A stretch of DNA of 64,000 nucleotides, taken from contig JAZRAL010000025.1 in NCBI GenBank assembly GCA_045634545.1, positions 11,602-75,601 on the forward strand. Direction: 5' to 3'. Shown piece by piece: positions 26,162 to 41,549 of this stretch. The notes beneath the pieces are model-generated. The model saw only the letters and a program-made list of their open reading frames with translations, had not been told where the DNA came from and made no database searches. This DNA comes from Alphaproteobacteria bacterium. GTDB taxonomy: Bacteria > Pseudomonadota > Alphaproteobacteria > RF32 > CAG-239. The number at the start of each line of letters is the position of its first letter. The first letter of the stretch is position 1. The translations under genes and the position numbers were made by a program.

Positions 26162-27259
26162 ATGAAGAAAATTATTTTAGTGTTGATGGTTGCTTTGGTT
26201 CCTTGTTTGGGTTTGGCAAATGAGGGAATAACAAAGGAAGAGATGATAAATAAGATAATTGAAACAGGAAATGAGGAATTTGATTTCAATTCATATTTTG
26301 AGGGTGTTGATGTTAATGATGATGGAATTATATCTAAAAATGAATTGGAGATGTTAAAAGATGGAACTATTGAATTAGATAAAGCATTAGAAGAAGTTTA
26401 TGGTGCTAAATCTTTAAGAACTGAAGAAGAAATTATTGAAAAAACAAATTTATTTTTTAAGAATGCTGACCAAAATAGTAATGATGAACTAGATTTAGCA
26501 GAAAGTGAAGCATTTTTCAAAAATTACGTAGAATATGAAGTGATAAATCAAGTTACAAATAGTTTTAATAAGCAAGATAGAACTCAAGATGGAATATTAA
26601 ATGAAAAAGATGTGCTAACAGAAGAAGAGATGCTTTTGAAACTAGAGACTATGAAAGAACAGTTTGCATCTTTGAGTGAGAGTTTTATTGAAGAAAACAT
26701 TGATCAAACTTTTCATGATATGGTTAAAAATCGGATGATCTTAACGTGTAGTGAAGAGTATTACCAAGCAGATAAAAATAAAGATGAGTGCTTAGATAAG
26801 GAAGAGTTTGTTAATTTTAGGACTTATGTGGATAAAAAATATCGTGAAGAGTATATGATAGAGAAAGATGAAAATAATGAATATCGTGAAGATTTTGATG
26901 GTATTAATACAAATGGTGATAATTGTATAGATAAAGATGAATATTGGGCTGAAAAAAAGAAATTTCAAGAAAAAACTTGCAAAGAAGATCCAATTTTTTG
27001 TGAAGATGATGATGAGTTAAAAGAATATTCTGATGAAGAATTTAATAAAATGGACGAAAATAAGGATGGTTGTGTAGCAGTTGAAGAATATGTTAATTAT
27101 GAAAAAAAGAAAATGCAAATGATATCGGATGAACTATCTAAAATGTATGCAGATGGTAGCGAGTATAGAAAAGAGTATGATAGGCTTGAAAAAGCATCAG
27201 AAAATTGTTTGAGTAAAGATGAATATATTAAAGAAAAAACAAAACTATTAGATTTTTAA
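26162..27259 (+). CDS. secreted multi-EF-hand calcium-binding-like protein
   Basis: Signal peptide MKKIILVLMVALVPCLGLA. Six to seven 12-residue EF-hand-like loops are present, e.g. DVNDDGIISKNE, DRTQDGILNEKD, DKNKDECLDKEE, NTNGDNCIDKDE, DENKDGCVAVEE. Confidence 0.8.
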   Translation: MKKIILVLMVALVPCLGLANEGITKEEMINKIIETGNEEFDFNSYFEGVDVNDDGIISKNELEMLKDGTIELDKALEEVYGAKSLRTEEEIIEKTNLFFKNADQNSNDELDLAESEAFFKNYVEYEVINQVTNSFNKQDRTQDGILNEKDVLTEEEMLLKLETMKEQFASLSESFIEENIDQTFHDMVKNRMILTCSEEYYQADKNKDECLDKEEFVNFRTYVDKKYREEYMIEKDENNEYREDFDGINTNGDNCIDKDEYWAEKKKFQEKTCKEDPIFCEDDDELKEYSDEEFNKMDENKDGCVAVEEYVNYEKKKMQMISDELSKMYADGSEYRKEYDRLEKASENCLSKDEYIKEKTKLLDF

Positions 27260-27384
27260 TATAAAAGTCATTAAGTAAATTTTATTGCTGTTTATAAGTA
27301 TTTAATTTTGGTGTAAAATTTTATAAACTGGTATAAATTAGGCTAAAGGTTTAGTGTTTTTTATATAAAAAAGGCTTGGTTAAG

Positions 27385-27864
27385 ATGCTTAAATTTTATA
27401 AAATGTTTGTTTTATTTTTTAGTTTGAGTGCTTTGGCTTGTTGTACTCTAAGTAATGAAGAAACTTATGAAGAAGTAGAAAACAATGAGGTTATTTGTAC
27501 TTGGTCAGAAAATGAATGGATTAGTAGAGGCGGACTTAAGATTTGTCCTAATATGAGAGTTTGTTCCGATGAGGAATTGGTGCCTTATCAGCCTTGTGTT
27601 ATTCCGATGCCAAAATATTATAATGATGTAAACCTTGCAGAAGGTGATGTAGAGCTTATTCATCCATATACTAGAAAAGTGGTGCTTTGTTTTGATGAGC
27701 CAGGTACATCTGTTCAGAGTTGTGTGGAAAGGTTTAGAAAAGAGGGATATGTTTTGATTACAGATATTCCTCAAGTTCCTGCTAGGTATGATGTGATTGT
27801 TGAAGGGAATTATCCGGCAAGACGCTGGGGAGGAAATAGGGGACAGGTAGTTCCACGTTGGTAG
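27385..27864 (+). CDS. putative lipoprotein, unknown function
   Basis: MLKFYKMFVLFFSLSALACC has a lipobox-like LSALAC. A strong terminator follows at 27871-27896. Confidence 0.55.
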   Translation: MLKFYKMFVLFFSLSALACCTLSNEETYEEVENNEVICTWSENEWISRGGLKICPNMRVCSDEELVPYQPCVIPMPKYYNDVNLAEGDVELIHPYTRKVVLCFDEPGTSVQSCVERFRKEGYVLITDIPQVPARYDVIVEGNYPARRWGGNRGQVVPRW

Positions 27865-27870
27865 AGGGAA

Positions 27871-27896
27871 AGCGCAATTTAGATTGCGCTTTTTTT
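27871..27896 (+). terminator. intrinsic terminator
   Basis: AGCGCAAT-ttag-ATTGCGCT followed by T7. Confidence 0.8.
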
Positions 27897-27951
27897 GTGG
27901 AGTGAGTTAAAGCATTGTTATATGTGTGTTGGTTCTCTCATATAGTTTTTG

Positions 27952-27980
27952 TTGCAAAATGGGTAAATTTGTGGTAGAAT
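27952..27980 (+). promoter_or_regulatory. extended -10 promoter (TTGCAA-N17-TAGAAT)
   Basis: TTGCAAaatgggtaaatttgTGGTAGAAT, upstream of ankyrin gene 28009. Confidence 0.5.
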
Positions 27981-28008
27981 GGCTTAAGTTTTGTAGAAAG
28001 AGGCAAAA

Positions 28009-29070
28009 ATGAGTGAAAATATTTTAGAAAAGCAATTAATTGAAATAATTCAAAATAAAGAAATGCCAGAGCATCTTAAACTTGCGAAAGTTGATATGTT
28101 GGTAATGCTTGGTGTTGATGTGAATACGAAATATAATGTAAAGTCACCTCTTTTTATTGCAAAAGAAAATGGACTTAATGGAGTTTGTGAATATTTGAGC
28201 AAAAAAGGGGCAGAAGAATTTTATTATGAATGGGAAGAAAAAAGGCTTGTAGAGCAATTATTGGAAGTATCTAAAAGTAAAAATCCTAATATTGAAAGGG
28301 TTAAAGAATTAATAGAAAAAGGAGCTTTAGTTAATGCTAAAAATTGTGTAGGGTCTACAGCATTGATAGAAGCATCTTTGGCAGGTAATAAAGAACTTGT
28401 AGAATTATTGATAGAAAAAGGGGCGTTAGTTAATGATAAGACTGATTCTGGAATGACAGCGTTGATATGGGCTTCTTATGCAGGTCATAAAGAAGTGGCA
28501 AAATTATTGATAGAAGAGGGTGCTGATATTGACGCTAAAGATAATACGCCGCAGTATGGTATGACCGCATTAATTTGGGCTATTCAAAAAGGTCATAATG
28601 AAGTTGTAGAATTATTGATTTCAAAAGGTGCAGATATTGAAGCTAAAGACAAAACGAATGGTAATACGGCATTAACTATGGCGTCTGCGTGTAATCGCAA
28701 AGAAGTTGTAGAATTATTGATTTCAAAAGGTGGAGATGTTAATGCTAAAAATAATGCAGGATTTAATGCATTGATGATGGCTATAAATGTAGAAATTGCA
28801 AATTTGTTGATAGAAAAAGGAATAGATATTGAAGCTAAAGATGAAATTCTTGGTAATACGGCATTGAATTCTGCTTCTAGATTTGGTCGGAAAGAAATTG
28901 TAGAATTATTGATTTCAAAAGGTGCAGATGTTAATGCTAAAGATAAAGATGGAAAAACAGCTTTGATGAGGGCAAAAAATGAAGAAATTAGAAAAGTAAT
29001 AATTGATGCTGTTAAGAAGAGAAATGAAAAAGATAATGTAAGTTTGGTTATTAATGAAATAGAAAGATAA
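28009..29070 (+). CDS. ankyrin-repeat protein, family N-terminal module
   Basis: Starts MSENILEKQLIEIIQNKEMPEHLKLAKVDMLVMLGVDVN, then about 8 ANK repeats. C-terminus is ...INEIER. Confidence 0.9.
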   Translation: MSENILEKQLIEIIQNKEMPEHLKLAKVDMLVMLGVDVNTKYNVKSPLFIAKENGLNGVCEYLSKKGAEEFYYEWEEKRLVEQLLEVSKSKNPNIERVKELIEKGALVNAKNCVGSTALIEASLAGNKELVELLIEKGALVNDKTDSGMTALIWASYAGHKEVAKLLIEEGADIDAKDNTPQYGMTALIWAIQKGHNEVVELLISKGADIEAKDKTNGNTALTMASACNRKEVVELLISKGGDVNAKNNAGFNALMMAINVEIANLLIEKGIDIEAKDEILGNTALNSASRFGRKEIVELLISKGADVNAKDKDGKTALMRAKNEEIRKVIIDAVKKRNEKDNVSLVINEIER

Positions 29071-29098
29071 AAACTTTATAAATTTTGTTCGATTTGTA

Positions 29099-29127
29099 TT
29101 GAAATGGGTGTAATTTTGTGATACAAT
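29099..29127 (+). promoter_or_regulatory. promoter (TTGAAA-N17-TACAAT)
   Basis: TTGAAAtgggtgtaattttgTGATACAAT, upstream of the charged orphan 29152. Confidence 0.5.
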
Positions 29128-29151
29128 ACTTATGGAAATAGCAATAGAGCT

Positions 29152-30138
29152 ATGAATGAGAGGCATGAGATGGCTAGTGTGTCAAGTGATTTTGAAAGGT
29201 TCTTGAAAGCAAATTTTCCTGATGATTATAGGAAGGTGATAGATCCTGATGTTAAAGAAGATGTAATAAATGCCATTATGTCTCGCAGGGAAGATGATTA
29301 TAAAATCTGGTGTAAAATTCCTGAATGGATTAAAAACGAATATGCAGATAATTTGCCTGATGAAGTGTTAAATGGAAATAAGACTGTAATTCAGTTCATT
29401 AATGAAGAAGAAAAACACAATAAAATCCAAGAAGAAGAAAATAAAAAATTGATGAATTATAGCGTATCTTTATTGGCTGCTGGGTATGCTGTGGAAACTG
29501 TTTCTATGATGGCGCAAAATAGGTCTCTTCGTGAAGAGTTGTTATTGCTTGCAGGTGTTGGACCTTTAACTCCAGAAATGAAAGAAAAATGGAGAGCTAC
29601 TCGTGAAAGTGATCGCCACTTAATTTTGAAAGATTGGAAAGAAAATCAACCTGAAAAATATTTTATGCATGTAGTTAAAGAAATGCATCGTGCAAATAGA
29701 AGGAAAGAGAGAGCTGATACTCCTGCTTTGATGGCTGCTGCAGATATGAGATTGTCGTCCTTAGAGCGTGAGTTTAAGGAAATATCTGAAAGAATTAAAG
29801 ATGAAAATGTTAGAACTAGATTGATGGAGTATTTAAGAGAGCCTTCTCAACAGGCTGCGCTTGGAAGATTAAGAGGTGATGTGCTTGATAAAGTTACTGA
29901 AACTCTTGGTAACGTTGGTGTAAGGGTTGTACCAAAAGAGAGGAGCACTTCAAGAACTAGAGGTAGAAGAAAAACTTTAGCTTCTGAAATTAAGTCTCAG
30001 ATTGAAGACGGAAATGTTGATGAAAGAGTTAAAGCAAAAGTTGAACAATATTCGAAAGCAAGTGATGAATTTGTTAAGCCTGTAAAAACAATTGCAAGAG
30101 ATATTGTAAGACAGTTAAATGTAGAGTTGAGTAGATAA
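29152..30138 (+). CDS. hypothetical highly charged soluble protein
   Basis: Long ORF behind TTGAAA-17-TACAAT (29099-29127). No signal peptide, Lys/Glu/Arg-rich, basic patch RSTSRTRGRRK. The true start may be ATG 29170, which has RBS GAGAGG. Confidence 0.65.
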   Translation: MNERHEMASVSSDFERFLKANFPDDYRKVIDPDVKEDVINAIMSRREDDYKIWCKIPEWIKNEYADNLPDEVLNGNKTVIQFINEEEKHNKIQEEENKKLMNYSVSLLAAGYAVETVSMMAQNRSLREELLLLAGVGPLTPEMKEKWRATRESDRHLILKDWKENQPEKYFMHVVKEMHRANRRKERADTPALMAAADMRLSSLEREFKEISERIKDENVRTRLMEYLREPSQQAALGRLRGDVLDKVTETLGNVGVRVVPKERSTSRTRGRRKTLASEIKSQIEDGNVDERVKAKVEQYSKASDEFVKPVKTIARDIVRQLNVELSR

Positions 30139-30269
30139 TTTAGTCTTTTATTGATTATAAAATTTTCTTAGTTTTTTTGATTATATTGGCTTATTTATAT
30201 TTTTTATAAATAGGTTGATATGGTTATAGTAAAAATGTTAAAAATAGTTGGTTTTTTGGGATTTTTTAG

Positions 30270-30298
30270 TTGATTTTTAATAAAAAATAATGTATAAT
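30270..30298 (+). promoter_or_regulatory. near-consensus sigma70 promoter (TTGATT-N17-TATAAT) for the 30334-35309 operon
   Basis: TTGATTtttaataaaaaataatgTATAAT, with the -10 ending 35 nt upstream of ATG 30334. Confidence 0.55.
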
Positions 30299-30333
30299 TT
30301 CAAAAGATATGTATATGTGGTCGGAGAGTTTTT

Positions 30334-31254
30334 ATGTATTTGTTGATGTTACTTGCTACGTTTATGGCAGCAATATACGGATATAATTTATCAGCACGCC
30401 CTGAATATGATAGGGATATTGTGCGTAAAAGAGCGCTGTCCGTATTGACGCGCTTTGATGAACAGCACAGATATGTAGAAGGTCTTGTTAGTAGAATTAG
30501 AAAACATAGAGAAAATCATGAACTACCGCTATATGTTCTTCCTGATGATGTAGTAACAGGAGGAGATAATCCAAATAATCCTAATAATAAATATTTGCTA
30601 ATTTATAAACAAAATCATGAGTTAGCAAAAGAGGAGTTTGAATTTTATCAAAAGAAAATAGAAGGAGAAAGTACTTCAGGTAATTATATGCCATTGGGTA
30701 AAAAATTATACCCTGCAGATGAAATGGCAACAAAAGTTGTATGCTTAAAAACAAAGTTGTATTGTTCAACAGGTAGTGAATTTGGATGTGATGGAAATAG
30801 GGCTGAAACTTGTGATATTCTGATTGATGAGTCTGACCCTAGTAATAGGCAGATTAGTGATACTTGTTGTAAGGCAGGAGCTTCTCCTGGGGGGAAATAT
30901 TTGGTTACATTTAAGGCAATTGATGCAAAGTGGCTAAGTCGAATTACAGGAAAAATCAGTATGGATTTTATGGAAGCATTGCAATCTAGAGAATTTAACC
31001 AAAATGTTGGAATAATTAATTGGGAAAATGGAGCTTGGAAGTTCCAAGGTAAATTAAGATTTTTACCATCTTATGAAGAGGCAAAATTAAGATGGGAAGC
31101 AGATCCTGCTCATAGTGATAGTGATTATTTTCCAAGTAAAGAAAAAAATAAGACAGTATGGATTTTGCCATCATTCTTTGGGGAAGATTTTTTTAAAGTT
31201 AATGGCGAAGATATGTGTGAAAAAGGCTGTATTTTTCACATTGAAGATTTTTAA
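30334..31254 (+). CDS. hypothetical protein with N-terminal hydrophobic anchor, Cys-containing extracytoplasmic domain
   Basis: RBS is GGAGAG. MYLLMLLATFMAAIYGY is a hydrophobic N-terminus. The stop lies 14 nt before the next gene's ATG, so the two form an operon. Confidence 0.65.
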   Translation: MYLLMLLATFMAAIYGYNLSARPEYDRDIVRKRALSVLTRFDEQHRYVEGLVSRIRKHRENHELPLYVLPDDVVTGGDNPNNPNNKYLLIYKQNHELAKEEFEFYQKKIEGESTSGNYMPLGKKLYPADEMATKVVCLKTKLYCSTGSEFGCDGNRAETCDILIDESDPSNRQISDTCCKAGASPGGKYLVTFKAIDAKWLSRITGKISMDFMEALQSREFNQNVGIINWENGAWKFQGKLRFLPSYEEAKLRWEADPAHSDSDYFPSKEKNKTVWILPSFFGEDFFKVNGEDMCEKGCIFHIEDF

Positions 31255-31268
31255 TAGGGAGAAGTTAT

Positions 31269-34200
31269 ATGAGAAAAGTGTTTAATAAAATAGAACAACG
31301 CGGTACTCTCTTAGTAGAAGCATTGGCTATGCTAGGATTGATAGCGATGGTTACTCCAACTCTCTATAAGAAATCTGCAGAGAGGTTGCAAGAGATACAA
31401 GATATTAATGCTGCATCTCAAGCAAGAACAATGAATAATGTTATTGAAACATTTATTAAAACACACTTCCAACAAATACTTGCTGAAACATCATCTGCAT
31501 CTGATCCTAAAACAGTTAAAATTGCATTAGAAGATAATAGCTCAGGTTATTTTGATATAGGTTATTCAAGCTTTTTGCCATATGGATATAGCCCAGATAC
31601 AATTAAAAATTATAAAGCACCTGAGATTTATGTTCATAGAGATGGTAATAGTTTGGTTTCTTATATTGTATATCCTCAAATTATTGACCCAGGTAGAAAA
31701 AGAGCAGCAAGACTAGCATCTCTTGTTGGTTCTAATGGTGGTTTAATTACTCCTTTAAGAGAAGCGCAAGGTACTGGAGGTGCTTGGTATTTGGATAGTT
31801 CTATGATTGATGATTTGGAAATTGACTTAGATGATGTTGGGGCTAACTCTTTGGTTATTACAGCAAATGAGCCTATCCAAAACTCAACAGAGGATAACGA
31901 CAAGTTCTTATATAGAATAGAAGGTGATGAGCCTTTTCATAATGCAATGATTACAGACCTTTATATGGGGGGTATTGCAGACCAAACTAGTAACTTTTCT
32001 TCAGATACAAGTCCTGATAACTTTTTTGGTATTTATAACGTAAGGAAACTTACACTTAATACTAGATGTGATAAAGGTTTGGTAGGACTCAATGCACCTA
32101 GTATTGCAACAAATTATTGTAATCCGTATGTTGCTGATTTATATATTGGTAAGCCTTTAGAAGGTGCAAACTACGAAGATGAAGCTGTTAGACCTTTTGG
32201 TAATAATGCGGCGGCTTGGATTTATGGTAATTTAAGTGCTATAAATGAAGGATTTAAGGTTACTTCTGATTCATCACGTACAGCAGAATTTGTTTTTGGT
32301 CCGACAAGTGGTGATGTTGATTTTGATTCTACATTTACAAGCTATGATTTGATTTATGCTAAGGGAACTTACGATAGTAGTGAGGCTGAAGTTCGTATGC
32401 TTGGAGAGTTTGTAAAAGCTAAAAAAGATTTGGTAGGTGGATATACATTTAGTGTTGGTAGTTCTATGACTGCGGATAGCGACAATGAGATGATTCAAGC
32501 CTATAGTGATGCAGGTGGGCAAAAAGTTCGTATCGGTATGCAAAAAGATGCAGATGTTTATATAGCTCAAAAAGGCGGTAATGTATTTATTAACTCTTCT
32601 GAAGATAGTTCTAGTACTATGGTTAATGCTGTTACAAAAATTAATAGCGGCGGTGGTAGTTTAGAAGCAGGTGTTGAAGGAGGCTGGATGTTTGCAAGTG
32701 GTAGAGATGATAGTACTACTGTGCAGATGTTAAAGGGTAATCAAGGGGTGTTTGCTGTTGGTAAAGACGGAGCAAATGATGATGATAATTTAATTTATGC
32801 TGATTTTGGTGGAGGTTCTAGTGGCGTTGCTTCTAGCCGAGTATCTTTATATGGTCAAAGAATGGTTGTATTGAAAGATACTCCTTATAATGAAGCATCA
32901 GGATTTGGCGGGACAAATGCTTCTGGATATGAAGTGAAAGATGGTTTGACTGTTGTTGCATCTAAGTATACAGATATTTTCGGTTCTACATATATGGGGG
33001 CTGGAGATATGAGTTCTGAGGTTGATGATGGTGCTGTATATAATAGAGGAGATTGGGGTTTAGGTGTTGCTGGTTCTGCATGGGTTGATAAGACTTTGTG
33101 GGCAAGAAGAGCATGGCTTAAAGATGCAGGTATGAAAAATCTACATGCTGGATTTAGCTCATTTGCTCAATATGAACAAAATCCTAAAACTGGTTGGCTT
33201 AATGTTTATGGAAAAGGTGGTAGTGAGCTTGTTGGTGGCGGTGTTGTAATTCGTAATCCAGATAAAATTATTGAAAATAATAACATTGGTACTAATACAG
33301 ATATTATGTTCCTTGCTAATTCTAGTTTTGCATATATGGCTGATACAGATGGTGCATTTATGTTATTGAACGAAGGTACTGCAAAAATTGGTTCTGAGTT
33401 TAATTATTTTGCTAGTGATTCTAGTAATGCATCAAATGTTTCTGGTTCTTCTTATGTAGTTGGTGCTAATGGTGTAAAGATATATGCTTTAGATCAGGAT
33501 ATAAGTAGTAGTCTTGTTGATATTCAAGACGGTGCGCTTCAAATGCGTGGAAAACCAGGTGGGAGTAGCGGTGTATATGGTAATATGATTGAGGCTAAAG
33601 CTGGCGAGTTCGGTTTATTTACGGGGAGCACCGCATCAAATACAGTTGATGATGCTCAGTTGTATGCAAATAGTGATATAGTTAGAACTCGTTATGTTGA
33701 TTTTGAAGTTCAACGTGATAGCATGGATAGTTCGGTTGTATTTGGGGTTCATCCTAATGCTAGTGCACTTGGCTCAGCTAATGTAGAAATTGATGGTAGT
33801 TTACATATCACTGGTAATGAAGTATTGCACGTAGCTTCTGATAGCGAAAATACTGCAGAGCACGAGAGCTCGAGAGCTATGTTTGAAATTGATCCTAATT
33901 ATGTTAGAATTTGGGCTAGAGATGAACATGGAACATATGCAAAAGGTGGCGATTATCATGCTATGTTAACTATTAATCCTCAAGATATTAATGGTTCTTC
34001 TATTGCAACAACAGATATAATGAATGATACATCTATTTATGTTAGAAGAGGTGCTATTGAGTTAGAACGGAGTATTGGTGGTGAAGGTGGTTCATCTTCT
34101 ATATATGGTGCTGATGAGGGATTTGGTTATATTAAAGCAAATAGGTTTGTTTCTAATGCAAATGTAACAGTGCCTACAGTTACTACTACAACTGGTGGTG

Positions 34201-35309
34201 GCGATAGGGGTGAAGCATATGACCAATATATGGTAAACCCAGCGTATACATCTGTGATGCATGATATTAAACTTACAACACGTGGTGGTGCAAGACTTAG
34301 TGATATCTTGCCAGATTTCGTGTTAAAAGGTGTTTATAACGTATCTAATGACTATACTGAAGCAAGTGACGGTAAATCAGAACGTATTTCTTGGAGTGCT
34401 GGAAGTGATTGGAGTGGTGGTAAAAATACCAATCCTGTTGCTTGGGCATCACCATATTTGGGCATTGTGCCATATGCTATGTGTCCTCCAGGATATAAAA
34501 ATATGGCGACCATTGTGCCAATTTCTTTCCAACTAGGTAGAGCAGGTAGAGTTGTTGAGGCAGGCCAAAAAGGTGGAGTTTCTACAAGGTCTAAATGGAT
34601 GGTTGCAGACACTCTTAGACAATCAGATATTATAAGTGCGTCTTATGGTACTAGAGGAATAGCATATCCTGCTTTGGAAGAAAGTAGCAGTTTGGTTTGG
34701 AACGATATTTATAATAGTTCTGGAACATTCTCTCAATTTGTTTCTGATATTGAATGGAAAACAGAAGGTTGGTACCGAGGCTTTAAGGCAAATAGTAATG
34801 AACATGGCGAATTGATAAATACTAGACTTACTACAGGTTCTAATCAGGTTCAAATATTTACAGATGCAGATAATTCGTCATTTGCGGTTGCAGAACCTTT
34901 GTACTTCCAAGAAGGAACATATTTAAAGACATCTCTTAACCCTACAGATATTGGTTGGGAAGGACGAATGGGCTTTATTTATAATAAGGATAATTGGACG
35001 CTATCTGCAATGGGGAATAATTTCTTTGATGAAGGTATTCGTTCAAATAATACTGCGAATGACTCTAGTAACCCTGGTGCTAGTATGACTGATTATGTAT
35101 GGAACTTATTCCCTGTTCCAACGAATACTTTAGAAGGTCATGCAACGGTTTATTGTTATTTTGATAGAACTCAGTTTGATTCTTCTCATGTATTGCAATT
35201 TAATGCAAAATCTGATGATTATAAATTTAATAGTAAATCTGATACAGATAAAGGTGGTTATGTTGAAAGACTTAATGATCCTAGTTTGAAATATAAAGAT
35301 CCATGGTAA
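31269..35309 (+). CDS. giant (1346 aa) protein with prepilin/TadE-like N-terminal class III signal
   Basis: RBS is GGGAGAAG. The N-terminus reads MRKVFNKIEQRG/TLLVEALAMLGLIAMVTPTLY: a basic leader, Gly at -1, Glu at +5, and a hydrophobic helix of about 20 aa. The remainder is Gly/Ser/Asp/Asn/Thr-rich with no domain recognisable by eye. Confidence 0.8.
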   Translation: MRKVFNKIEQRGTLLVEALAMLGLIAMVTPTLYKKSAERLQEIQDINAASQARTMNNVIETFIKTHFQQILAETSSASDPKTVKIALEDNSSGYFDIGYSSFLPYGYSPDTIKNYKAPEIYVHRDGNSLVSYIVYPQIIDPGRKRAARLASLVGSNGGLITPLREAQGTGGAWYLDSSMIDDLEIDLDDVGANSLVITANEPIQNSTEDNDKFLYRIEGDEPFHNAMITDLYMGGIADQTSNFSSDTSPDNFFGIYNVRKLTLNTRCDKGLVGLNAPSIATNYCNPYVADLYIGKPLEGANYEDEAVRPFGNNAAAWIYGNLSAINEGFKVTSDSSRTAEFVFGPTSGDVDFDSTFTSYDLIYAKGTYDSSEAEVRMLGEFVKAKKDLVGGYTFSVGSSMTADSDNEMIQAYSDAGGQKVRIGMQKDADVYIAQKGGNVFINSSEDSSSTMVNAVTKINSGGGSLEAGVEGGWMFASGRDDSTTVQMLKGNQGVFAVGKDGANDDDNLIYADFGGGSSGVASSRVSLYGQRMVVLKDTPYNEASGFGGTNASGYEVKDGLTVVASKYTDIFGSTYMGAGDMSSEVDDGAVYNRGDWGLGVAGSAWVDKTLWARRAWLKDAGMKNLHAGFSSFAQYEQNPKTGWLNVYGKGGSELVGGGVVIRNPDKIIENNNIGTNTDIMFLANSSFAYMADTDGAFMLLNEGTAKIGSEFNYFASDSSNASNVSGSSYVVGANGVKIYALDQDISSSLVDIQDGALQMRGKPGGSSGVYGNMIEAKAGEFGLFTGSTASNTVDDAQLYANSDIVRTRYVDFEVQRDSMDSSVVFGVHPNASALGSANVEIDGSLHITGNEVLHVASDSENTAEHESSRAMFEIDPNYVRIWARDEHGTYAKGGDYHAMLTINPQDINGSSIATTDIMNDTSIYVRRGAIELERSIGGEGGSSSIYGADEGFGYIKANRFVSNANVTVPTVTTTTGGGDRGEAYDQYMVNPAYTSVMHDIKLTTRGGARLSDILPDFVLKGVYNVSNDYTEASDGKSERISWSAGSDWSGGKNTNPVAWASPYLGIVPYAMCPPGYKNMATIVPISFQLGRAGRVVEAGQKGGVSTRSKWMVADTLRQSDIISASYGTRGIAYPALEESSSLVWNDIYNSSGTFSQFVSDIEWKTEGWYRGFKANSNEHGELINTRLTTGSNQVQIFTDADNSSFAVAEPLYFQEGTYLKTSLNPTDIGWEGRMGFIYNKDNWTLSAMGNNFFDEGIRSNNTANDSSNPGASMTDYVWNLFPVPTNTLEGHATVYCYFDRTQFDSSHVLQFNAKSDDYKFNSKSDTDKGGYVERLNDPSLKYKDPW

Positions 35310-35314
35310 TAAAG

Positions 35315-35347
35315 AAAACGCCAGCTAAAAAAGCTGGCGTTTTTTTT
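35315..35347 (+). terminator. intrinsic terminator after the giant prepilin-like gene
   Basis: AAAACGCCAGCT-aaaaa-AGCTGGCGTTTT followed by a T-run. Confidence 0.85.
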
Positions 35348-35374
35348 GAGTGTTTATGGTGGGGATTTATAGTG

Positions 35375-35403
35375 TTGACAATATTGTAATGCGTGTTTAT
35401 AAG
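35375..35403 (+). promoter_or_regulatory. promoter (TTGACA-N17-TATAAG)
   Basis: TTGACAatattgtaatgcgtgttTATAAG, upstream of 35455. Confidence 0.5.
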
Positions 35404-35454
35404 AAAAAACGATAAATTAATTATTTAAACTATTATTTTATAAACAGCATAATT

Positions 35455-36405
35455 ATGAAATTTTACGAGACGATGTTGAGCGCAACAGACGAAACGCATT
35501 TAAGTTTTGTTGATAAGATTTTTAATGATGAGTTTGGGGTGAAAGATGGAAAGCCTACGGCTTCGTTAAAACTTGTTTTTACGGATAATCAAAATGATGT
35601 ATTAGATGTTTTGGGTGATGATGGATTTTTTGTATTGGATATAGAAAAGTTTATTGTTGCCTTGGAATGTCGAATATTTAAGTTGATTGAAGAACGTGAT
35701 TTAGGGCATGATAAAGCGAAGTTGATGTTTGATTTTTTGAGAATTAAACAAATTTATCCTTATGCAATGAAGATTTATATTTATGTCTATTGTTGCATGG
35801 AAGAATTTAGAGAAAAAGAGAAAAATCTGAATATTCAGAGTTCGATTTGTAGCGTCTCAGGACAGTTTTATTCTGAAATTAGGGATTGTCGAGGGGGGAT
35901 TTCTCCAGATTTATTTATTAAATTGTATGAAACAACTCCTTTTGAAATCACAAGAAAACTCAGCCAGTTAGAGAATGGTAAAAGCTATGATGATTGTTTT
36001 GATATTCTTAAAACAGATGATAATAGCAAAGTTATTGCTCGTTTTTTGTTGGTTGGAGGCTTTGTTAATAATTGGACATCTTTTGCAAGATGGGTGTTAA
36101 AAGCCTATCCAAACAGAGATCTTGATAACGAGCTTGTTTTGGGAATGGTCAATATTATTTGTAGAGCAGGTAATAATGGTGTTGAGTTTGATGTTGATGA
36201 TTACAAAAACTTTTTACGGGAGGTTCTTGATACTAAAGTTGATGAAAAGATAAAGGTTTTACTTCTTTTGAAAATTATTGGCTTTTATCGAGAGGCTTTG
36301 GGTGGAGATATCTCTTTGTTGATGAGTGATGTAATCAAAAGTCTTAAAAATCTTGATGAGGAAGATAGTGTTAAGATGATGACTAATTTTGTTTTGAAAT
36401 TGTAA
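35455..36405 (+). CDS. hypothetical protein
   Basis: 316-aa ORF with TTGACA-17-TATAAG promoter (35375-35403) and a shared bidirectional terminator. No signal peptide and no recognisable motifs. Confidence 0.6.
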   Translation: MKFYETMLSATDETHLSFVDKIFNDEFGVKDGKPTASLKLVFTDNQNDVLDVLGDDGFFVLDIEKFIVALECRIFKLIEERDLGHDKAKLMFDFLRIKQIYPYAMKIYIYVYCCMEEFREKEKNLNIQSSICSVSGQFYSEIRDCRGGISPDLFIKLYETTPFEITRKLSQLENGKSYDDCFDILKTDDNSKVIARFLLVGGFVNNWTSFARWVLKAYPNRDLDNELVLGMVNIICRAGNNGVEFDVDDYKNFLREVLDTKVDEKIKVLLLLKIIGFYREALGGDISLLMSDVIKSLKNLDEEDSVKMMTNFVLKL

Positions 36406-36412
36406 ACAATGT

Positions 36413-36451
36413 AAAAAAAAGAGCCCCTTAAATGCTAAGGGGCTTTTTTTC
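36413..36451. terminator. bidirectional terminator shared by convergent orphans
   Basis: A8-GAGCCCCTTA-aatgc-TAAGGGGCT-T7. Confidence 0.8.
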
Positions 36452-36746
36452 ATTTTTCTAATTGGTAATTGTACCAAGGTTCGGTTTCTTTGGCTTGTTG
36501 CCAAACTTGTTGTACATAAGCTTCAAGCTTTGGAGATTTTGTGTCATACATACACGATCGTTCGTGTATCTCATTAAATAATTCATCATCGGGGATTTTG
36601 CCAATTGTAACGCTTGGTCCTTTGCGAAATCGATTGTCTGAAGTGTAAATACAGCCAATGACGGATATTTGCCTTCCTTCTAGCACAATAAATGCCCATG
36701 CATTTCCCCATCTTTTATAGGCAACATACCTTGTTTGTCTTTGCAT
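36450..36746 (-). CDS. small hypothetical protein (98 aa)
   Basis: ORF lies between an upstream TTGACA box (36807-36812, minus strand) and the bidirectional terminator at 36413-36451. No known motif and a weak RBS. Confidence 0.45.
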   Translation of the reverse strand: MQRQTRYVAYKRWGNAWAFIVLEGRQISVIGCIYTSDNRFRKGPSVTIGKIPDDELFNEIHERSCMYDTKSPKLEAYVQQVWQQAKETEPWYNYQLEK

Positions 36747-36812
36747 AATACTTTGGTTTATAATAATTTGTTGTCGATATTGTTTTAGTATTGTGTTTGT
36801 TGTTATGTCAAT

Positions 36813-36839
36813 AAAAAAAGGAGTGAAAAATCACTCCCT
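36813..36839 (-). terminator. intrinsic terminator after the SLT gene
   Basis: The minus strand reads GGGAGTGA-tttt-TCACTCC followed by T8. Confidence 0.75.
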
Positions 36840-36842
36840 TGT

Positions 36843-37532
36843 TTAGAATAATGCGCTTTGCAAATCGGTTCTTATATATTCGGCATAATGCTTTTCTAGT
36901 CTATTTTTATAGTTTGTACCATGACGAATATTTTTTGAGTGATATTGCATAGCGGTTTTTTTCCAGTCATTTGTACGTTTGTGAAGTTTGTTTAAGAATG
37001 AAGCGCTGTAGCTTACGTTCTTTTTAGGGTCAAAAGCTTCATCAAGGTTTTTAAATGACTTGCCATGATATCTTAAATTGATTTGCATGCAACCAACATC
37101 AATATTTTTTATGCCTTGTTGTTGCATTGTTTGTACAGCATTAATAGCATCTTCTTTGGTTTTATAGTATTTTCCTTTGCCGTTTGCGTGAACAGTCCAA
37201 GGCCAAGGTAATCTTTTGCCAACAACGGTGATATATTTACCGCTTTCAACAGATGCTATTGTTTGAAGTAGGTTTTGTTTTATATTGTGTGTATTTTCTA
37301 CTTCATTGATAGCTATAAGGCATAATTCATGTGGTTGTGGCTCTAGCATAGATGTAACACGTTCTGTTGTGGAAGGTGTTTTAGCTATGTTTAAGTCTTT
37401 ATCTGATTTTTTTACTTTTATTGGGTCTTCTTTTATAACAAGTAGACTGTTTATATTATATGCCTCATAAGCTTGAGTTGGTGCAGTGATAAGAGTTATC
37501 AAAACCAACATAAATATTATGCTTTTTAGCAC
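36843..37532 (-). CDS. lytic transglycosylase (SLT domain), secreted
   Basis: Signal peptide, catalytic-Glu context IASVESG, then PWPWTVHANGKGKYY...GIKNIDVGCMQINLRYHG, typical of the small SLT/IagB/VirB1-like family. GTG start with RBS AAGGAAA. Confidence 0.8.
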   Translation of the reverse strand: MLKSIIFMLVLITLITAPTQAYEAYNINSLLVIKEDPIKVKKSDKDLNIAKTPSTTERVTSMLEPQPHELCLIAINEVENTHNIKQNLLQTIASVESGKYITVVGKRLPWPWTVHANGKGKYYKTKEDAINAVQTMQQQGIKNIDVGCMQINLRYHGKSFKNLDEAFDPKKNVSYSASFLNKLHKRTNDWKKTAMQYHSKNIRHGTNYKNRLEKHYAEYIRTDLQSALF

Positions 37533-37706
37533 GATTATATTTTCCTTAATACCGCTAGTAGGGCAAGGGGCCTCCCTGTCTTTAAACTTTCAGCCCGGTT
37601 AGAACCTATAAGATTACTATCCCTAAAAACGGGTAAATTAACAAAAGACCAAAAAGAAATAATTGCTTTCTGACCAAATTCAAGGAGGGTTTATACCATA
37701 TAAAAT

Positions 37707-38588
37707 TTAAAAATCCAGCAAAAAATTACCTAAATTTACAACTACTTTGCTTATGTCGTGACTAACCTTTTGAAAATCCTCGTTTTTCTCAAAGGTTTCT
37801 TCGTTTGCATAGATTATTCTATTTACTTCTAGTTGAAGAGTATATGACTTTTTGCGAGGTTCACAGTAGTTAAATGTAATAAAAGCACCAGAATATGGGC
37901 GATTTTTAGATACATAATACTCTCTTCTAACTAGTTCGTTTTCTACAAAAAAGCTTATTTTATTTGGACAACTTTGTTCAAAGAGGTTTCCAAGGCAAAT
38001 ATCTATGCGCGGAGACTCTGAAATAATTGAGCAGATTTTTGATGGCATTGAGTGACAATCAAGAACCAAGCAGAATCCAAACTTTTTGGTTATTTTAGCA
38101 ATTAAATCGTTCATTTTTTTGTGATATAAGTCATATACATTTTTAATGCGCGCTTCTGCTTCTTTGTAGGATAATAAGCCATTATAGATTGGTTGGCTTT
38201 CGGCTGTTACTTTATGGATTATACCTAGGCCATAACGTGAGCGTTGTTGATTTAGTCCTAAATCTTCTCTTGGATAATCATAAAACATATTTGGATCTAA
38301 TTCTACTTTGGCACGATTTACATCTATGAATGAACGGCTAATGTTTAAACTTAATGCAGTAATACCACCTTCGGTTATTGCAGGTAATAATAAATCCTTT
38401 ACATGAATATCTTCGTTTTTTCGAAGTACCGATATATCATGATTTATGTTTTTTAAAAATTCTTCTGGAAAAATTGTTCCGCAATGGGGAATAGATAAAA
38501 GTAGTGGGTATTTTATATCTTTTGTATTAAACTCTGTTAAGATGTCTAATTTTTTATAATCTACTGTAAAATCAATATGTTCGCTCAT
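37707..38588 (-). CDS. N-formylglutamate amidohydrolase family protein
   Basis: Motifs LLLSIPHCGT, SFIDVNR and LVLDCHSMPS are characteristic of the FGase (PF05013) family. Confidence 0.8.
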   Translation of the reverse strand: MSEHIDFTVDYKKLDILTEFNTKDIKYPLLLSIPHCGTIFPEEFLKNINHDISVLRKNEDIHVKDLLLPAITEGGITALSLNISRSFIDVNRAKVELDPNMFYDYPREDLGLNQQRSRYGLGIIHKVTAESQPIYNGLLSYKEAEARIKNVYDLYHKKMNDLIAKITKKFGFCLVLDCHSMPSKICSIISESPRIDICLGNLFEQSCPNKISFFVENELVRREYYVSKNRPYSGAFITFNYCEPRKKSYTLQLEVNRIIYANEETFEKNEDFQKVSHDISKVVVNLGNFLLDF

Positions 38589-38678
38589 TGTTTCTCTTTT
38601 TTAAAATCTATTTATACAACTTTATATGATTACTTATACACAAAAATGGTTAACTTTTTCATAATTTTTTTAAAAGAC

Positions 38679-38706
38679 TTGAAAAGAGAGTGCGGTATGG
38701 TAAAGA
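38679..38706 (+). promoter_or_regulatory. promoter (TTGAAA-N16-TAAAGA) for the candidate sRNA
   Basis: TTGAAAagagagtgcggtaTGGTAAAGA. It shares the TGGTA architecture of the ankyrin promoters. Confidence 0.35.
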
Positions 38707-38712
38707 TTGGGA

Positions 38713-38833
38713 AATATAATAGTAGGACCATTAGTTTAAAAGTAGAATTCATCCTTGACATGGATGAGAAAGAGGAGCGTTACCTCTATGGTCCACCAGT
38801 TTTTTTAAGGGCGATTTAATCGCTCTTTTTTTT
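38713..38833 (+). ncRNA. candidate small RNA (promoter-to-terminator unit, about 120 nt)
   Basis: TTGAAA-16-TAAAGA promoter at 38679-38706. Three nested helices: 38725-31/38788-94, 38748-54/38762-68, 38771-75/38783-87. Intrinsic terminator at 38809-38833. Alternative reading: a 41-aa ORF from ATG 38697. Confidence 0.3.
38809..38833 (+). terminator. intrinsic terminator of the candidate sRNA unit
   Basis: GGGCGAT-tta-ATCGCTC followed by T8. Confidence 0.65.
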
Positions 38834-38834
38834 G

Positions 38835-38863
38835 TTGCAAGATGTTGTTTTTTATGGTATTAT
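38835..38863 (+). promoter_or_regulatory. extended -10 promoter (TTGCAA-N17-TATTAT)
   Basis: TTGCAAgatgttgttttttaTGGTATTAT, upstream of the secreted repeat protein 38897. Confidence 0.5.
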
Positions 38864-38896
38864 ATTTTTATAGGAAATAGAAAGAGGAGAAAGTTA

Positions 38897-39658
38897 ATGT
38901 CTGAAAAGGATAAAGAAGAAATGAAAAGCGATGCAAGGCGTATTTTGAATAAATTTAAGACTGCCTTTCTTGTGATGGGTATTACATTGGCAGGTAGTCC
39001 TGCTCAAGGTAAAACGTCTGAAAATACCAGCGAAGAAGGGCATCAAACAGAGTTTTTTGTTAATAACGAATCAGAACGTCAGACTGGGGTGAAGGAAATA
39101 TCCCTAGATGAACTTGTTGATATGAGTAATAGTAGGGAGGGGCAAAATGTTGTTTCTTATTCTACACCTCAAGAAGAATATGCTTATCAAAATAACCTTG
39201 TAAGACATGAACGTTTATCTAGAGGACTTCCTCATAATAGTATTTATGAGGGTGCTTATTTACAAAGAAGTTATCATTATGGTGTTTCTGATAAGATTGT
39301 TTATTTACCTAAAGATATGGAATTAAATAGATATGAAATTCGCAGATTTAATTATAATAATGCAGTAGAATTGTATCGTGAATGTCGTGATGTATATAAT
39401 CCAAGAGGTAAATTTGTTTATGGTCCTGGTAGTCAATATGGTTATGGTCCAAAAGGACCTAGTGTTGGAGATGTTGTTCATGAAGTTGGACGTACAGCAA
39501 GAGAAATCAATCATGTTACTAGGGAAATTGATCATACTGTTAAAGAAGTTAAGCGTACTGTTAGAGAAATTAAAGGTATTTTTAATGGTGGTAAAAAAGC
39601 ACCGGCGCCTCGTTCTGGTAGTAGAACAGGTATGCCAAGAGGTGGACGTGATAGATAA
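38897..39658 (+). CDS. secreted hypothetical protein with heptad tandem repeats and basic tail
   Basis: RBS is AGAGGAG. The N-terminus ...SDARRILNKFKTAFLVMGITLAGSPAQG is signal-peptide-like and possibly Tat-like. It has four tandem heptads RTAREIN/HVTREID/HTVKEVK/RTVREIK. C-terminus is RSGSRTGMPRGGRDR. Confidence 0.65.
   Translation: MSEKDKEEMKSDARRILNKFKTAFLVMGITLAGSPAQGKTSENTSEEGHQTEFFVNNESERQTGVKEISLDELVDMSNSREGQNVVSYSTPQEEYAYQNNLVRHERLSRGLPHNSIYEGAYLQRSYHYGVSDKIVYLPKDMELNRYEIRRFNYNNAVELYRECRDVYNPRGKFVYGPGSQYGYGPKGPSVGDVVHEVGRTAREINHVTREIDHTVKEVKRTVREIKGIFNGGKKAPAPRSGSRTGMPRGGRDR
39491..39574 (+). repeat. 4 x 21-bp tandem coding repeat (heptads)
   Basis: CGTACAGCAAGAGAAATCAAT / CATGTTACTAGGGAAATTGAT / CATACTGTTAAAGAAGTTAAG / CGTACTGTTAGAGAAATTAAA. 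Confidence 0.8.
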
Positions 39659-39666
39659 TATGTAGG

Positions 39667-41199
39667 TTATTCAAAAATAACTTCTAGGTCTTTTCTTGCT
39701 AATACTACGTAGCCAAGAACATCTTTAGCACCTTCTTTACGGAGAACTTTTTCTTCTATTTTTACAACTTCAAAACCACAGTGCTTTAATTGGCGCATTA
39801 CGTATGAGATATTGTGTACAAAGCGACCTGATGGGGTTAGGTGGTATTCGTTTTTGTTTAGAGTGTTTTTGGAGATAGAAAAACAGAAATATCCATTAAT
39901 GTTTATAGTTTTAGTTAATAATCTTGTTAAAGGTTTTAAATCTCCCATATAGGTTAAAACATCTCCGGCGATGATGACATTATATGTGGAATTTGTTTCT
40001 TCTAAAAATGTTAAAATATCATCAGCATATAATTCTTTGTAGATGTTCTTTTTTCCGGCTTCGGAAAGCATTTTTTCTGAAATGTCTACACCATAATATT
40101 CTTCATTTGGGAAATGTTTTTTTAGTTCTTCGGTGCATAACCCTGTTCCGCAACCAATGTCTAGAATTTGATGCTTTTTAAATAATTTGGTTTTAAGAGT
40201 GTTTTTTAAGAAGTCAGCTATGGTTTCAGGAACACTATAACCAAGTTCTTCTAGAATATTATCAAAAGAATATGCAAAACCATCGAATAATGTTTTTATA
40301 TAATCATGGTCAGATGTTTTAATATCTTGGGTATCACTTAGTGCTGAGCATAAGTGATGAACAATTGGATTGTCTGGAAAATGATTTTTCCACAATTCAA
40401 TATAATTTTTTACTAAATCATGTTGATTTTCATCATGGGCTTCATAAAGAAAGTAGCCAAAGTTTATATGGTCATCTGAGCTTACGTGGTAATTTTTTAA
40501 GAAGAATAAGCGCCATGCATAGTGAAGTCCTTGTTTGTAGTTGCTCATTTTCATAAATAAGCTAGCAATGGAGTTACATACCCATTCTGAATTTGGGGCA
40601 ATTGTTGCAGCTTTTTTTAATAACATTGCAGCATCGTCTTTTTTTAGGAGTTCTGCATAGGCATTTCCTGCTACAATATATGGTTCAACACTGTTTGGGC
40701 GCATTTCTATGGCAATTTTGGCAAATTCAATTGCACGGATGAATTGTCCTAAGTTGTAGCTGGTATTGGCTATATTTGCAACAGCATTATATGATTTAGG
40801 ATTTAGGTTATATAATTTTTCATAGTATGAGAGAGCTTCTTTGTATTCTTTATTAGCATAGTATGAGTTTCCTAGGTTTAATAGTGCAGAGAAATTATTA
40901 GCATTTAATTCTAGGACTTTGTTGGCACAATATACGGCTTTTTCGTATTTTTTAATCTCGTAGTAGATTGTTGATAAATTTAATAGTGCAGTTGTAGATG
41001 ATGGATTTACCGTAAGAGCTTTTTTGTAAAGATTTTTTGCAGTTTTTTTATCTCCGAGAGAATCGTAACAGTTAGCTGCTGTAATTAAGTATTTTTCTGA
41101 TGAGGGGTTATCTAAAGCGAGCTTTAGGTAGAGTTTTGCTGCTTTTTCATATTCTTTGTTTTTTAGAAAGTTTAGGGCGTTTTGTTCTATGTTATCCAC
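39667..41199 (-). CDS. TPR-repeat protein fused to class I SAM-dependent methyltransferase
   Basis: N-terminal TPR units (A..Y.KAL..NP...) and a C-terminal motif I ILDIGCGTGLCTEEL. Confidence 0.8.
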   Translation of the reverse strand: MDNIEQNALNFLKNKEYEKAAKLYLKLALDNPSSEKYLITAANCYDSLGDKKTAKNLYKKALTVNPSSTTALLNLSTIYYEIKKYEKAVYCANKVLELNANNFSALLNLGNSYYANKEYKEALSYYEKLYNLNPKSYNAVANIANTSYNLGQFIRAIEFAKIAIEMRPNSVEPYIVAGNAYAELLKKDDAAMLLKKAATIAPNSEWVCNSIASLFMKMSNYKQGLHYAWRLFFLKNYHVSSDDHINFGYFLYEAHDENQHDLVKNYIELWKNHFPDNPIVHHLCSALSDTQDIKTSDHDYIKTLFDGFAYSFDNILEELGYSVPETIADFLKNTLKTKLFKKHQILDIGCGTGLCTEELKKHFPNEEYYGVDISEKMLSEAGKKNIYKELYADDILTFLEETNSTYNVIIAGDVLTYMGDLKPLTRLLTKTININGYFCFSISKNTLNKNEYHLTPSGRFVHNISYVMRQLKHCGFEVVKIEEKVLRKEGAKDVLGYVVLARKDLEVIFE

Positions 41200-41364
41200 G
41201 TTTAATATCCTCTTATAAAACTATTTTTGCTCTTTACTTTATTACATTATGGCTATTCTAACATATAAAAACAAATTCTTCTATACTTTTATAATAAAAA
41301 AAATAAAAAAAACTATTGACGATTAAAAAAATATATTATAAACAACTTTTCTAGTACAGATTAT

Positions 41365-41450: not shown

Positions 41451-41459
41451 ATATGATGA

Positions 41460-41488: not shown

Positions 41489-41489
41489 A

Positions 41490-41518: not shown

Positions 41519-41549
41519 GACTATAAGTTATATAGATGAGGTGCATAGT

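Follow-up and report, generated by a model that had tools for sequence, protein, structure and literature searches.

What a 1346-aa protein with a prepilin-like N-terminus might do in an alphaproteobacterium, and whether it is a pilin at all, is the question raised by a two-gene locus in a 64,000-nt stretch of DNA from an uncultured Alphaproteobacteria bacterium (contig JAZRAL010000025.1; the whole stretch is called the window below). The locus encodes a 306-aa protein, here the partner, and downstream of it the 1346-aa protein, here the giant. A reading of the letters alone (the sequence-only reading) had seen in the giant a TadE-like class III signal and considered it a possible giant tip adhesin. 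By sequence comparison, the N-terminal ~240 residues of the giant are homologous to the constant region of the type IVb pilin PilV and are not TadE-like. With a probability of roughly 55%, we take the giant to be a modular minor pilin of type IVb that sits at the tip of a filament of PilS/Bundlin-type pilins, with the partner as a second tip or initiation subunit. This reading builds on the N-terminal sequence signature, the homology to PilV, the conserved gene pair and the presence alongside it of type IVb pilins and, in a single subclade, of a prepilin peptidase; from these we infer cleavage, filament incorporation, tip location, adhesin function and docking by strand addition.

The N-terminus of the giant, MRKVFNKIEQRG/TLLVEALAMLGLIAMVTPTLY (the slash marks the predicted scissile bond after Gly12), was compared with those of its homologues in a set of 223 unique N-termini, with an alignment anchor that did not force Gly(-1). 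Gly(-1) is present in 223 of the 223, and Glu(+5) in all homologues compared; the window protein reads TLLVE(5)ALAMLGLIAMVTPTLY, a hydrophobic segment. The leader is mostly 12-16 aa long, basic (K/R-rich) and highly variable (2.4-3.4 bits per position), with Gln or Glu at position -3, while position +1 is Thr, Ser or Gly (Thr in the window protein) and A6, A8, M9, L10, L12, V16, T17, P18, Y21, K23, R27, E30, D33, N35 and R41 are invariant. The step in conservation falls exactly at the predicted scissile bond, as expected of a cleaved leader. As judged from the alignment, the Gly(-1)/Glu(+5) signal is far beyond chance, since both residues are kept in every homologue examined. The class III prepilin-like signal of the sequence-only reading, including its Gly12 and Glu17, is therefore well founded: the conservation boundary at Gly(-1) is sharp, Glu(+5) does not vary, and a long alpha-1 helix is predicted. 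The generic prepilin models PF07963 (N_methyl) and TIGR02532, from Pfam and NCBIfam, do not match the giant; the established type IVb prepilins R64 PilV and PilS, examined as a control, likewise miss the N_methyl model, so the failure of the giant carries no weight.

Behind the cleavage site, the pilin module (residues 13-240) proceeds from a hydrophobic alpha-1N segment bearing Glu(+5) through an amphipathic alpha-1C to a beta-sheet head, and closes with the motif LYR...N.M.T.LYMGG. AlphaFold2, given 98 sequences, predicts one helix over residues 2-65(76) followed by strands between residues 82 and 198, with a predicted local distance difference test (pLDDT) score above 90 across most of residues 20-200. 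A helix with a beta-sheet head is the 'lollipop' layout of pilins, a predicted fold that we assign from secondary structure together with sequence homology. The profile of the module aligns with residues 41-220 of R64 PilV over 173 columns (hhalign probability 86%, E 5e-6), and the two have in common the motifs GGY(I/V)..G..W and (D)xLYR......N.M.T..MG. Two distant family members, P0110 (37.7 bits) and P0118 (41.4 bits), pass the gathering threshold of 27.5 for PF04917 (Shufflon_N), with the match in the region that aligns to giant residues 1-240, and BLASTP of P0118 against R64 PilV gives E 6e-10. A leader of 12-16 residues also fits type IVb. The resemblance to TadE, TadF and TadG perceived in the sequence-only reading has to be given up in favour of PilV: no TadE or Tad model of Pfam and NCBIfam (PF07811, PF13400) matched the window giant or nine diverse homologues at E values up to 5. 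Sequence-profile searches of the PDB, with the full-length profile and with the N-module profile, returned nothing.

The giant belongs to a sizeable family. A search of ~5.8 billion proteins found 147 giant relatives, about 95 of which are full-length (1,300-1,470 aa, 39-77% identity); more distant ones, of 950-1,470 aa, share the two ends only. The N-module profile alone retrieves 1,137 cluster representatives (clustering at 50% identity), 224 of them with E ≤1e-30. In the GTDB species set, giant relatives are encoded in 219 stretches, corresponding to at least 219 species-level genomes of Alphaproteobacteria from gut and rumen. The loci presented here are 80 of these 219 stretches; the related loci total 1.86 Mb and cover ~2% of the genome of each relative. 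Nearly all of the 80 derive from uncultured metagenome-assembled genomes (MAGs) under the names 'Alphaproteobacteria bacterium', 'Acetobacter sp.' and 'Rhodospirillales', from human, pig, ruminant and rabbit gut. The contigs of four loci (L048, L054, L068 and L073) were deposited as Lachnospiraceae, Bacteroidaceae, [Ruminococcus] gnavus and Eubacterium sp., off-lineage names that probably reflect faulty binning or contamination of public MAGs. The closest relative, SUUK01000001.1, is syntenic with the window, and identity amounts to 77% for the giant and 69% for the partner against 86-97% for the neighbouring genes. Such quicker divergence of the pair is as expected if the two proteins are exposed and driven by interactions.

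Across the family the giant has three parts, a conserved N-module (residues 1 to ~240), a variable middle and a conserved C-module (~920-1346). The sequence-only reading had described everything beyond the signal as rich in Gly, Ser, Asp, Asn and Thr, suggestive of beta-rich structure, and free of recognisable domains and repeats, and this description stands. The composition is 10.5% G, 10.1% S, 7.7% D, 6.8% N and 6.3% T, also rich in A, with four Cys in total. AlphaFold2 predicts a beta-rich body of many short strands, with confident stretches at ~330-560 and 600-850; this body is the least conserved region between the subfamilies. Pfam and NCBIfam give no match to the giant, be it autotransporter, beta-barrel, TPS, RTX or other adhesin domain, and the body matches no known adhesin or autotransporter family and contains no internal repeats. 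Foldseek was run with both AlphaFold2 half-models against the PDB, and with the C-terminal half also against BFVD, at a significance threshold of E ≤0.001. The C-terminal half has no structural neighbour at that threshold in PDB or BFVD; the top, non-significant matches (OspA and TCP single-layer sheets, TcpB at E 0.4, phage fibres) are not evidence. The N-terminal half-model likewise gave no PDB match at that threshold.

The strongest conservation outside the N-module lies toward the C-terminus. The family's longest invariant run, a hyper-conserved linear motif, may serve as an interaction site; within it, residues 988-1008 score pLDDT <50 in the isolated model of the C-terminal half. The C-terminal beta-domain is common to all distant subfamilies at 30-49% identity and is modelled with pLDDT of about 80-95. 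The protein closes with a conserved peptide of the pattern Y-x-x-R-L-(N/D)-D-P-x-L-K-Y-x-D-x-W, which ends exactly at Trp in at least 222 of 235 family members, while the 14 residues ahead of it have an entropy of 3-3.9 bits; the last 10 residues again have pLDDT <50 in the isolated model. Conserved and yet disordered on their own, the C-terminal peptide and segment 988-1008 are natural docking candidates. By analogy with known tip proteins (PMC13533445), the peptide is a candidate signal for beta-strand addition.

The gene for the partner, a conserved membrane-anchored protein, is the only one that is consistently linked to the giant. Partner homologues of 240-340 aa lie directly upstream of the giant gene, in the same orientation, in 63 of 75 loci as determined by clustering, and in each of the five unrelated neighbourhoods examined; the intergenic gaps are mostly below 40 nt, and almost every locus with readable sequence upstream of the giant gene shows the MY... 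N-terminus. The question of co-occurrence, posed by the sequence-only reading, is thereby answered in the affirmative. The N-terminus of the window partner, MYLLMLLATFMAAIYGYNLSARPEYDRD, is leaderless and hydrophobic and leads into a body with 8 Cys, much as that reading had portrayed the 306-aa product (an uncharged hydrophobic N-terminus and a Cys-containing body). The N-terminal motif MY(L/I)(L/W)..LAT....(Y/F)N.S.R.D is conserved, with no acidic residue at position 5, and so are Cys137, Cys179, Cys295 and Cys299; the partner is otherwise variable. Pfam and NCBIfam contain no match to it. In topology it would resemble a mature pilin, with the N-terminus at the cytoplasmic face, a single hydrophobic helix and an exported body capable of disulfide formation. 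We considered the partner as a recognisable pilin or as a GspC, GspL, GspM or GspK protein and rejected these assignments for want of profile similarity. The next most frequent neighbour, in 21 loci, is a divergent gene of the HxlR regulator family, situated ~1.1 kb upstream of the partner gene on the opposite strand (among them L001, L003, L012, L013 and L095-L097), which could regulate the pair. In the window the HxlR gene is absent, and an unknown 328-aa gene and an ankyrin gene take its place.

In the window the two genes form a unit with its own signals (Table 1). They were read before as tightly coupled, each with a ribosome-binding site, under a near-consensus promoter and closed by a terminator with a 12-bp stem, and most of this account holds. 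The genes lie on the same strand 14 nt apart, and Shine-Dalgarno-like elements of the GGAG type precede both, GGAGAG 5' of the partner gene and GGGAGAAG 5' of the giant gene. The terminator 3' of the giant gene is real and clear. The promoter-like site TTGATT-17-TATAAT does occur, 36 nt 5' of the partner ATG and at a plausible spacing. Matches of this kind in the AT-rich stretch (32% G+C) number 14 against 25.8 in shuffled sequences; being rarer than in shuffles rather than enriched, they leave the site without statistical weight by itself, and its function as a promoter is plausible as judged from sequence. The description of the unit as stand-alone is also accurate: across five differing genomic contexts the pair is chromosomal and lies outside any pil operon (pilL-pilV) of a conjugative element.

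Table 1. Positions of the features discussed. Coordinates are those of the window unless preceded by the number of a related locus.
Feature	Position	Strand	Details
Promoter-like site TTGATT-17-TATAAT	30270..30298	+	10/12 consensus matches
Partner gene (open reading frame A)	30334..31254	+	306 aa
Giant gene (open reading frame B)	31269..35309	+	1346 aa
Leader peptide MRKVFNKIEQRG, residues 1-12	31269..31304	+	Gly(-1) last; N-terminus comparison
PilV-like pilin module, residues 13-240	31305..31988	+	AlphaFold2, hhalign, PF04917, BLASTP
Variable beta-rich body, residues 241-983	31989..34217	+	includes conserved Cys267/Cys284 pair
Hyper-conserved linear motif YDQYMVNPAYTSVMHDIKLTTRGGARLSDILPDFVLKGVYNVSN, residues 984-1027	34218..34349	+	longest invariant run in family
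Conserved C-terminal beta-domain, residues ~1015-1330	34350..35258	+	invariant Cys1072 and Cys1296
Conserved C-terminal peptide YVERLNDPSLKYKDPW-COOH, residues 1331-1346	35259..35306	+	16 residues; follows variable linker
Intrinsic terminator ending the two-gene unit	35310..35348	+	12-17 bp stem, 6 G-C pairs; arms 35311-35326 and 35332-35347, 94% complementary; T-run 3'
Peptidase_A24, 237 aa	L054:16576-17289, L068:8444-9157, L070:15721-16434	-	60.3 bits against a cut-off of 26.5
Scattered small pilins	L089:769-1368, 3917-4549, 10001-10699; L090:2960-3700, 10001-10648; L092:1369-2244, 10001-10837
Motif-less PilS-like pilins	L012:17821-18438; L014:17676-18293; L093:10001-10621; L095-L097:10001-10618
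SLT-domain lytic transglycosylase	36843..37532	-	signal peptide
Ankyrin-repeat paralogues	8452..9819, 9823..10686, 10823..11191, 11227..12123, 19245..20024
Ankyrin-repeat paralogues (continued)	21924..22790, 28009..29070, 41490..42845, 42858..44096, 55205..56107
Secreted EF-hand protein	26162..27259	+	weakly similar to XopAW family

If the giant works as a minor pilin, the following sequence of events can be proposed. The precursor would be inserted into the inner membrane by a route of the Sec/SRP (signal recognition particle) type, and a prepilin peptidase would cut the 12-residue leader after Gly12. The mature helix, starting at Thr1 and bearing Glu5, would then insert the protein into the core of a filament resembling type IVb pili, built from PilS/Bundlin-type pilins whose genes lie at other sites of the genome; the likeliest position is the tip, by comparison with PilV, TcpB and CofB. 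From there the beta-rich body would reach out like a stalk, with the conserved C-terminal beta-domain as the outward functional (binding) end, and the 306-aa partner would most likely pair with the giant in a tip or initiation complex. Large tip proteins are known to be locked to an apical pilin without Glu5 by their last ~10 residues, which act as a beta-strand; the strand is donated in trans by PilY1 and MshQ and in cis by the ~600-aa Tad protein CpaL (PMC13533445). In a similar manner, beta-strand addition may attach giant residues 988-1008, the terminal ...LKYxDPW peptide, or both, to the partner or to the N-module of the giant itself. The giant tip adhesin of the sequence-only reading remains the best-supported view of the protein.

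Components of type IV filaments were sought with a Walker-motif scan, with phmmer searches using 11 R64 Pil and 12 E. coli Gsp proteins, and in five contexts around small pilins. Three related loci (L054, L068 and L070) encode an A24 prepilin peptidase, 2-3 kb downstream of the giant gene. It has both catalytic Asp motifs and is a short form lacking the methyltransferase domain; its gene adjoins groES-groEL and L25/Pth and has no further pilus genes in its vicinity. Small pilins of 200-250 aa, which carry a canonical G/RSM(V/I)EMLGVLAIIGVLS signal and match the PilS and Bundlin models of Pfam, number 18 copies in 16 loci at distances of up to 10 kb from the giant gene; a frequent gene order is pilin-partner-giant. 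They belong to a massively expanded family: of 8,000 database candidates scored, 7,979 reached significance, and at least 15 paralogues occur in a single MAG (prefix IJ525_), each standing alone among housekeeping genes. These arrangements show that in the genomes of the gut-alphaproteobacterial relatives the genes for type IV filaments are dispersed. In the part of the tree that includes the window, a single-copy PilS-like orthologue of ~205 aa always follows malQ, and it occurs in the same MAG as the giant in three instances (IJZ30_05575/IJZ30_00305, IKW39_01970/IKW39_03930 and NC218_06620/NC218_06605). One of the motif-less pilins, P0373, has entries in 8,041 blocks of the assembly collection, which marks its species as very common.

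Several results weigh against the giant being a functioning filament subunit in the window's own clade. The PilS-like orthologue there has lost the cleavage motif, Gly(-1) being replaced by Val or Ile and Glu(+5) by Lys or Gln, which calls a canonical filament into question; in the same genomes the giant, by contrast, strictly keeps both residues. Neither the window nor the 1.86 Mb of related loci yielded an assembly ATPase, a platform protein or a secretin. The sequence-only reading had stated that the window lacks pil, tad and gsp genes, and this holds: probes with the complete sets of R64 Pil and E. coli Gsp proteins gave no homologue there, and the polytopic proteins of the window comprise an MscS-type channel, an FtsX-like protein and a 150-aa protein without a family match. 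Nor does the 64-kb window contain a gene for an A24 prepilin peptidase: the enzyme was seen only in the distant subclade of L054, L068 and L070, and a metagenome scan with this lineage-specific peptidase recovered two close relatives only, of uncertain lineage. A 2025 survey of reduced-genome gut Alphaproteobacteria of the order Rs-D84 places type IV pilus genes in another lineage only (PMC12306168), with the membership of the window in that order not established. The window giant itself stays under all Pfam and NCBIfam thresholds, PF04917 included, and Foldseek recovered no pilin fold from a 600-residue multi-domain model of the N-terminal part, in which the beta-rich body dominated the search. 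The partner profile, finally, shows no similarity to the giant N-module, PilV, PilS or the E. coli Gsp proteins, so the idea of a pilin mimic rests only on its N-terminal topology. Two further candidates were discarded. A PilR_platform match in L084 is a false positive and corresponds to a HemK-like methyltransferase, and the lytic transglycosylase 1.5 kb downstream of the operon, considered as part of the module by analogy with PilT of the R64 pil operon, adjoins the pair in the closest relative only.

Among the rival explanations, the main one is that the giant is a pilin-derived envelope protein independent of any filament. Its N-terminal helix, uncleaved or else cleaved without being assembled, would be an inner-membrane anchor paired with the transmembrane segment of the partner, its body would lie in or across the periplasm or become exposed through some other route, and the type IV machinery would have decayed in the window's clade. 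The degenerate PilS-like pilin of that clade, the lack of an ATPase, platform, secretin or peptidase in the window and the loci of close relatives, and the absence of reported type IV pilus genes from Rs-D84 genomes (PMC12306168, with the same proviso on membership) all agree with it. The N-terminal hydrophobic helices are also the best-conserved parts of both proteins, as pairing within the membrane would lead one to expect. What such an anchor can hardly explain is an invariant Gly(-1)/Glu(+5) pair in the giant beside a freely varying leader, for which a peptidase and filament-type packing of the helix offer themselves, and a charged Glu is unusual in a plain membrane anchor. Related subclades do have the peptidase and canonical pilins, and with ~2% of each relative's genome sampled the absence of the machinery is not shown. 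We consider a filament-independent protein unlikely. A doubtful and more speculative proposal retains the tip complex and dispenses with the conventional pilus shaft: the pair would be a self-contained, repurposed minimal type IV filament tip complex serving host- or partner-dependent gut Alphaproteobacteria as an attachment device. The 145-kDa PilV-like giant would then constitute a 'single-subunit fibre', capped or received through beta-strand addition by a leaderless pilin-mimic partner, in a clade whose ordinary major pilin has lost its motif for cleavage and assembly.

The remaining explanations retain less of the evidence. Tad systems are common in Alphaproteobacteria, and the giant could in principle be a pseudopilin of the Tad (type IVc) class, with the Tad system that assembles it located at another site. 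A pilin-like N-domain, a large insertion and a conserved C-terminal strand are also the layout of the ~600-aa TadG/CpaL proteins (PMC13533445). Such an origin is nevertheless improbable given that ten diverse members matched no TadE or Tad model and align with PilV/Shufflon_N instead, that the neighbouring small pilins are of the ~200-aa PilS/Bundlin and not of the Flp type, and that the long predicted alpha-1C helix is unlike the short N-termini of TadE and TadF. A role at the tip, or as cargo, of a pseudopilus resembling that of type II secretion, with the partner as a GspK-like cap, would account for scattered pilin-like genes and a lone peptidase that form no classical pilus operon, and the hydrophobic N-terminus of the partner, devoid of Glu5, is formally like that of the apical GspK/PilK class. 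Here the hhalign probabilities of the partner profile against the E. coli Gsp proteins (≤1%), the absence of GspD, GspE and GspF homologues from the 1.86 Mb and the kinship of the N-module with a pilus tip adhesin rather than pseudopilins leave very little probability. Least of all can the giant be an ordinary Sec-exported adhesin or autotransporter-like surface protein that mimics a prepilin signal by chance. A beta-rich body rich in G, S, D, N and T is typical of adhesins, and the weak Foldseek similarity to fibre-like proteins would suit one. Against this stand a motif kept without change in over 200 diverse sequences, conservation that sets in sharply at the predicted cleavage site, and an N-module homologous to PilV in a protein without any autotransporter, beta-barrel or adhesin domain match; by these sequence criteria, the hhalign alignment to PilV and the N-terminus conservation, this explanation is effectively refuted.

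Among known systems, PilV of the IncI plasmid R64 (PF04917) is closest to the giant. It begins MKKYDRG/WASLE, a class III signal with Gly(-1), Glu(+5) and a +1 residue other than Phe, continues with the homologous pilin module and a Gly/Asn/Ser-rich region, and is presumed to sit at the tip and to set the binding specificity of the type IVb thin pilus. The two differ in length (430-475 aa in PilV against 1,346 aa, or 950-1,470 aa in the family) and have unrelated C-terminal halves, and the pilV gene belongs to the complete pil operon of a conjugative plasmid whereas the giant gene is chromosomal, alone and coupled to a novel partner. The segment GGARLSDILPDFVLKGVY resembles a stretch of PilV, and the giant was examined as a full-length PilV homologue with a large insertion; an hhalign probability <1% led us to reject this. 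The C-terminus of PilV is varied by shufflon DNA inversion through sfx repeats and Rci. Shufflon-like variation of the giant was rejected, as the locus lacks such repeats, the sole significant inverted repeat in or around the gene being the terminator, and no recombinase is adjacent. CpaL/TadG of type IVc shares the three-part logic, and its extreme C-terminal strand is needed for assembly of the CpaL tip complex (PMC13533445); it is a ~600-aa protein of the Tad/TadG family encoded with tad genes, and no sequence relationship to the giant was detected.

In modular pilins, such as PilB and PilC of S. sanguinis, CofB of enterotoxigenic E. coli and TcpB of V. cholerae, a pilin module carries bulky modules displayed at the tip, as it appears to do in the giant. 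These proteins are known and widespread; CofB and TcpB join their pilin domain to a beta-repeat domain and a C-terminal beta-sandwich, and the most extreme multi-domain case named in a survey has 860 aa (PMC8179133). The four examples are 400-520 aa long and have no dedicated co-transcribed partner, whereas the extra modules of the giant match no known domain. PilY1/PilC and MshQ, from the type IVa and MSHA systems, approach the giant in size (~1,000-1,200 aa) and are tip adhesins that dock by their last ~10 residues on a pilin without Glu5. By analogy, the pair could work like PilY1 or MshQ, with the partner as the acceptor. The giant differs from them in that they have no pilin N-terminus, possess a C-terminal beta-propeller and adjoin pilIJK-type minor pilins; the Pfam Neisseria_PilC domain has no match in the giant.

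No description of the giant family was found in the literature searched, and at 950-1,470 aa it would be larger than any family with a pilin module that we found described, compared with 860 aa for the most extreme multi-domain case in the modular-pilin survey (PMC8179133). New are this size, a body and C-terminal domain that are not recognised, a novel partner that is obligatory, the organisation as a chromosomal unit standing by itself and the confinement of the family to one clade of uncultured gut Alphaproteobacteria. Some lineages related to the uncultured carriers have strongly reduced genomes and a suspected partner-dependent lifestyle, and the carriers include one species whose neighbouring pilin gene occurs in thousands of metagenome assemblies. 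A conserved, fast-evolving and surface-directed giant pilin would be an obvious candidate for attachment to host or partner cells. The partner, the disordered motif and the C-terminal peptide allow a direct test of whether the beta-strand-addition rule extends to type IVb-like systems.

Outside the locus, the window has 30-37% G+C and most of its genes on the + strand, and GC skew on that strand is very strongly positive over the whole window (1..64000), about +0.2 to +0.45 in most 4-kb windows. At least 10 paralogous ankyrin-repeat reading frames share an N-terminus of ~40 aa (MSE.TLE.QL.EII..KEMPE.IKLAK.DML.KLGVDVN). The set looks like an expanded effector-like family, pointing to a eukaryote- or host-associated lifestyle. 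The similarity of the secreted EF-hand protein is to the XopAW family of type III effectors, and the protein is also present in the closest relative.

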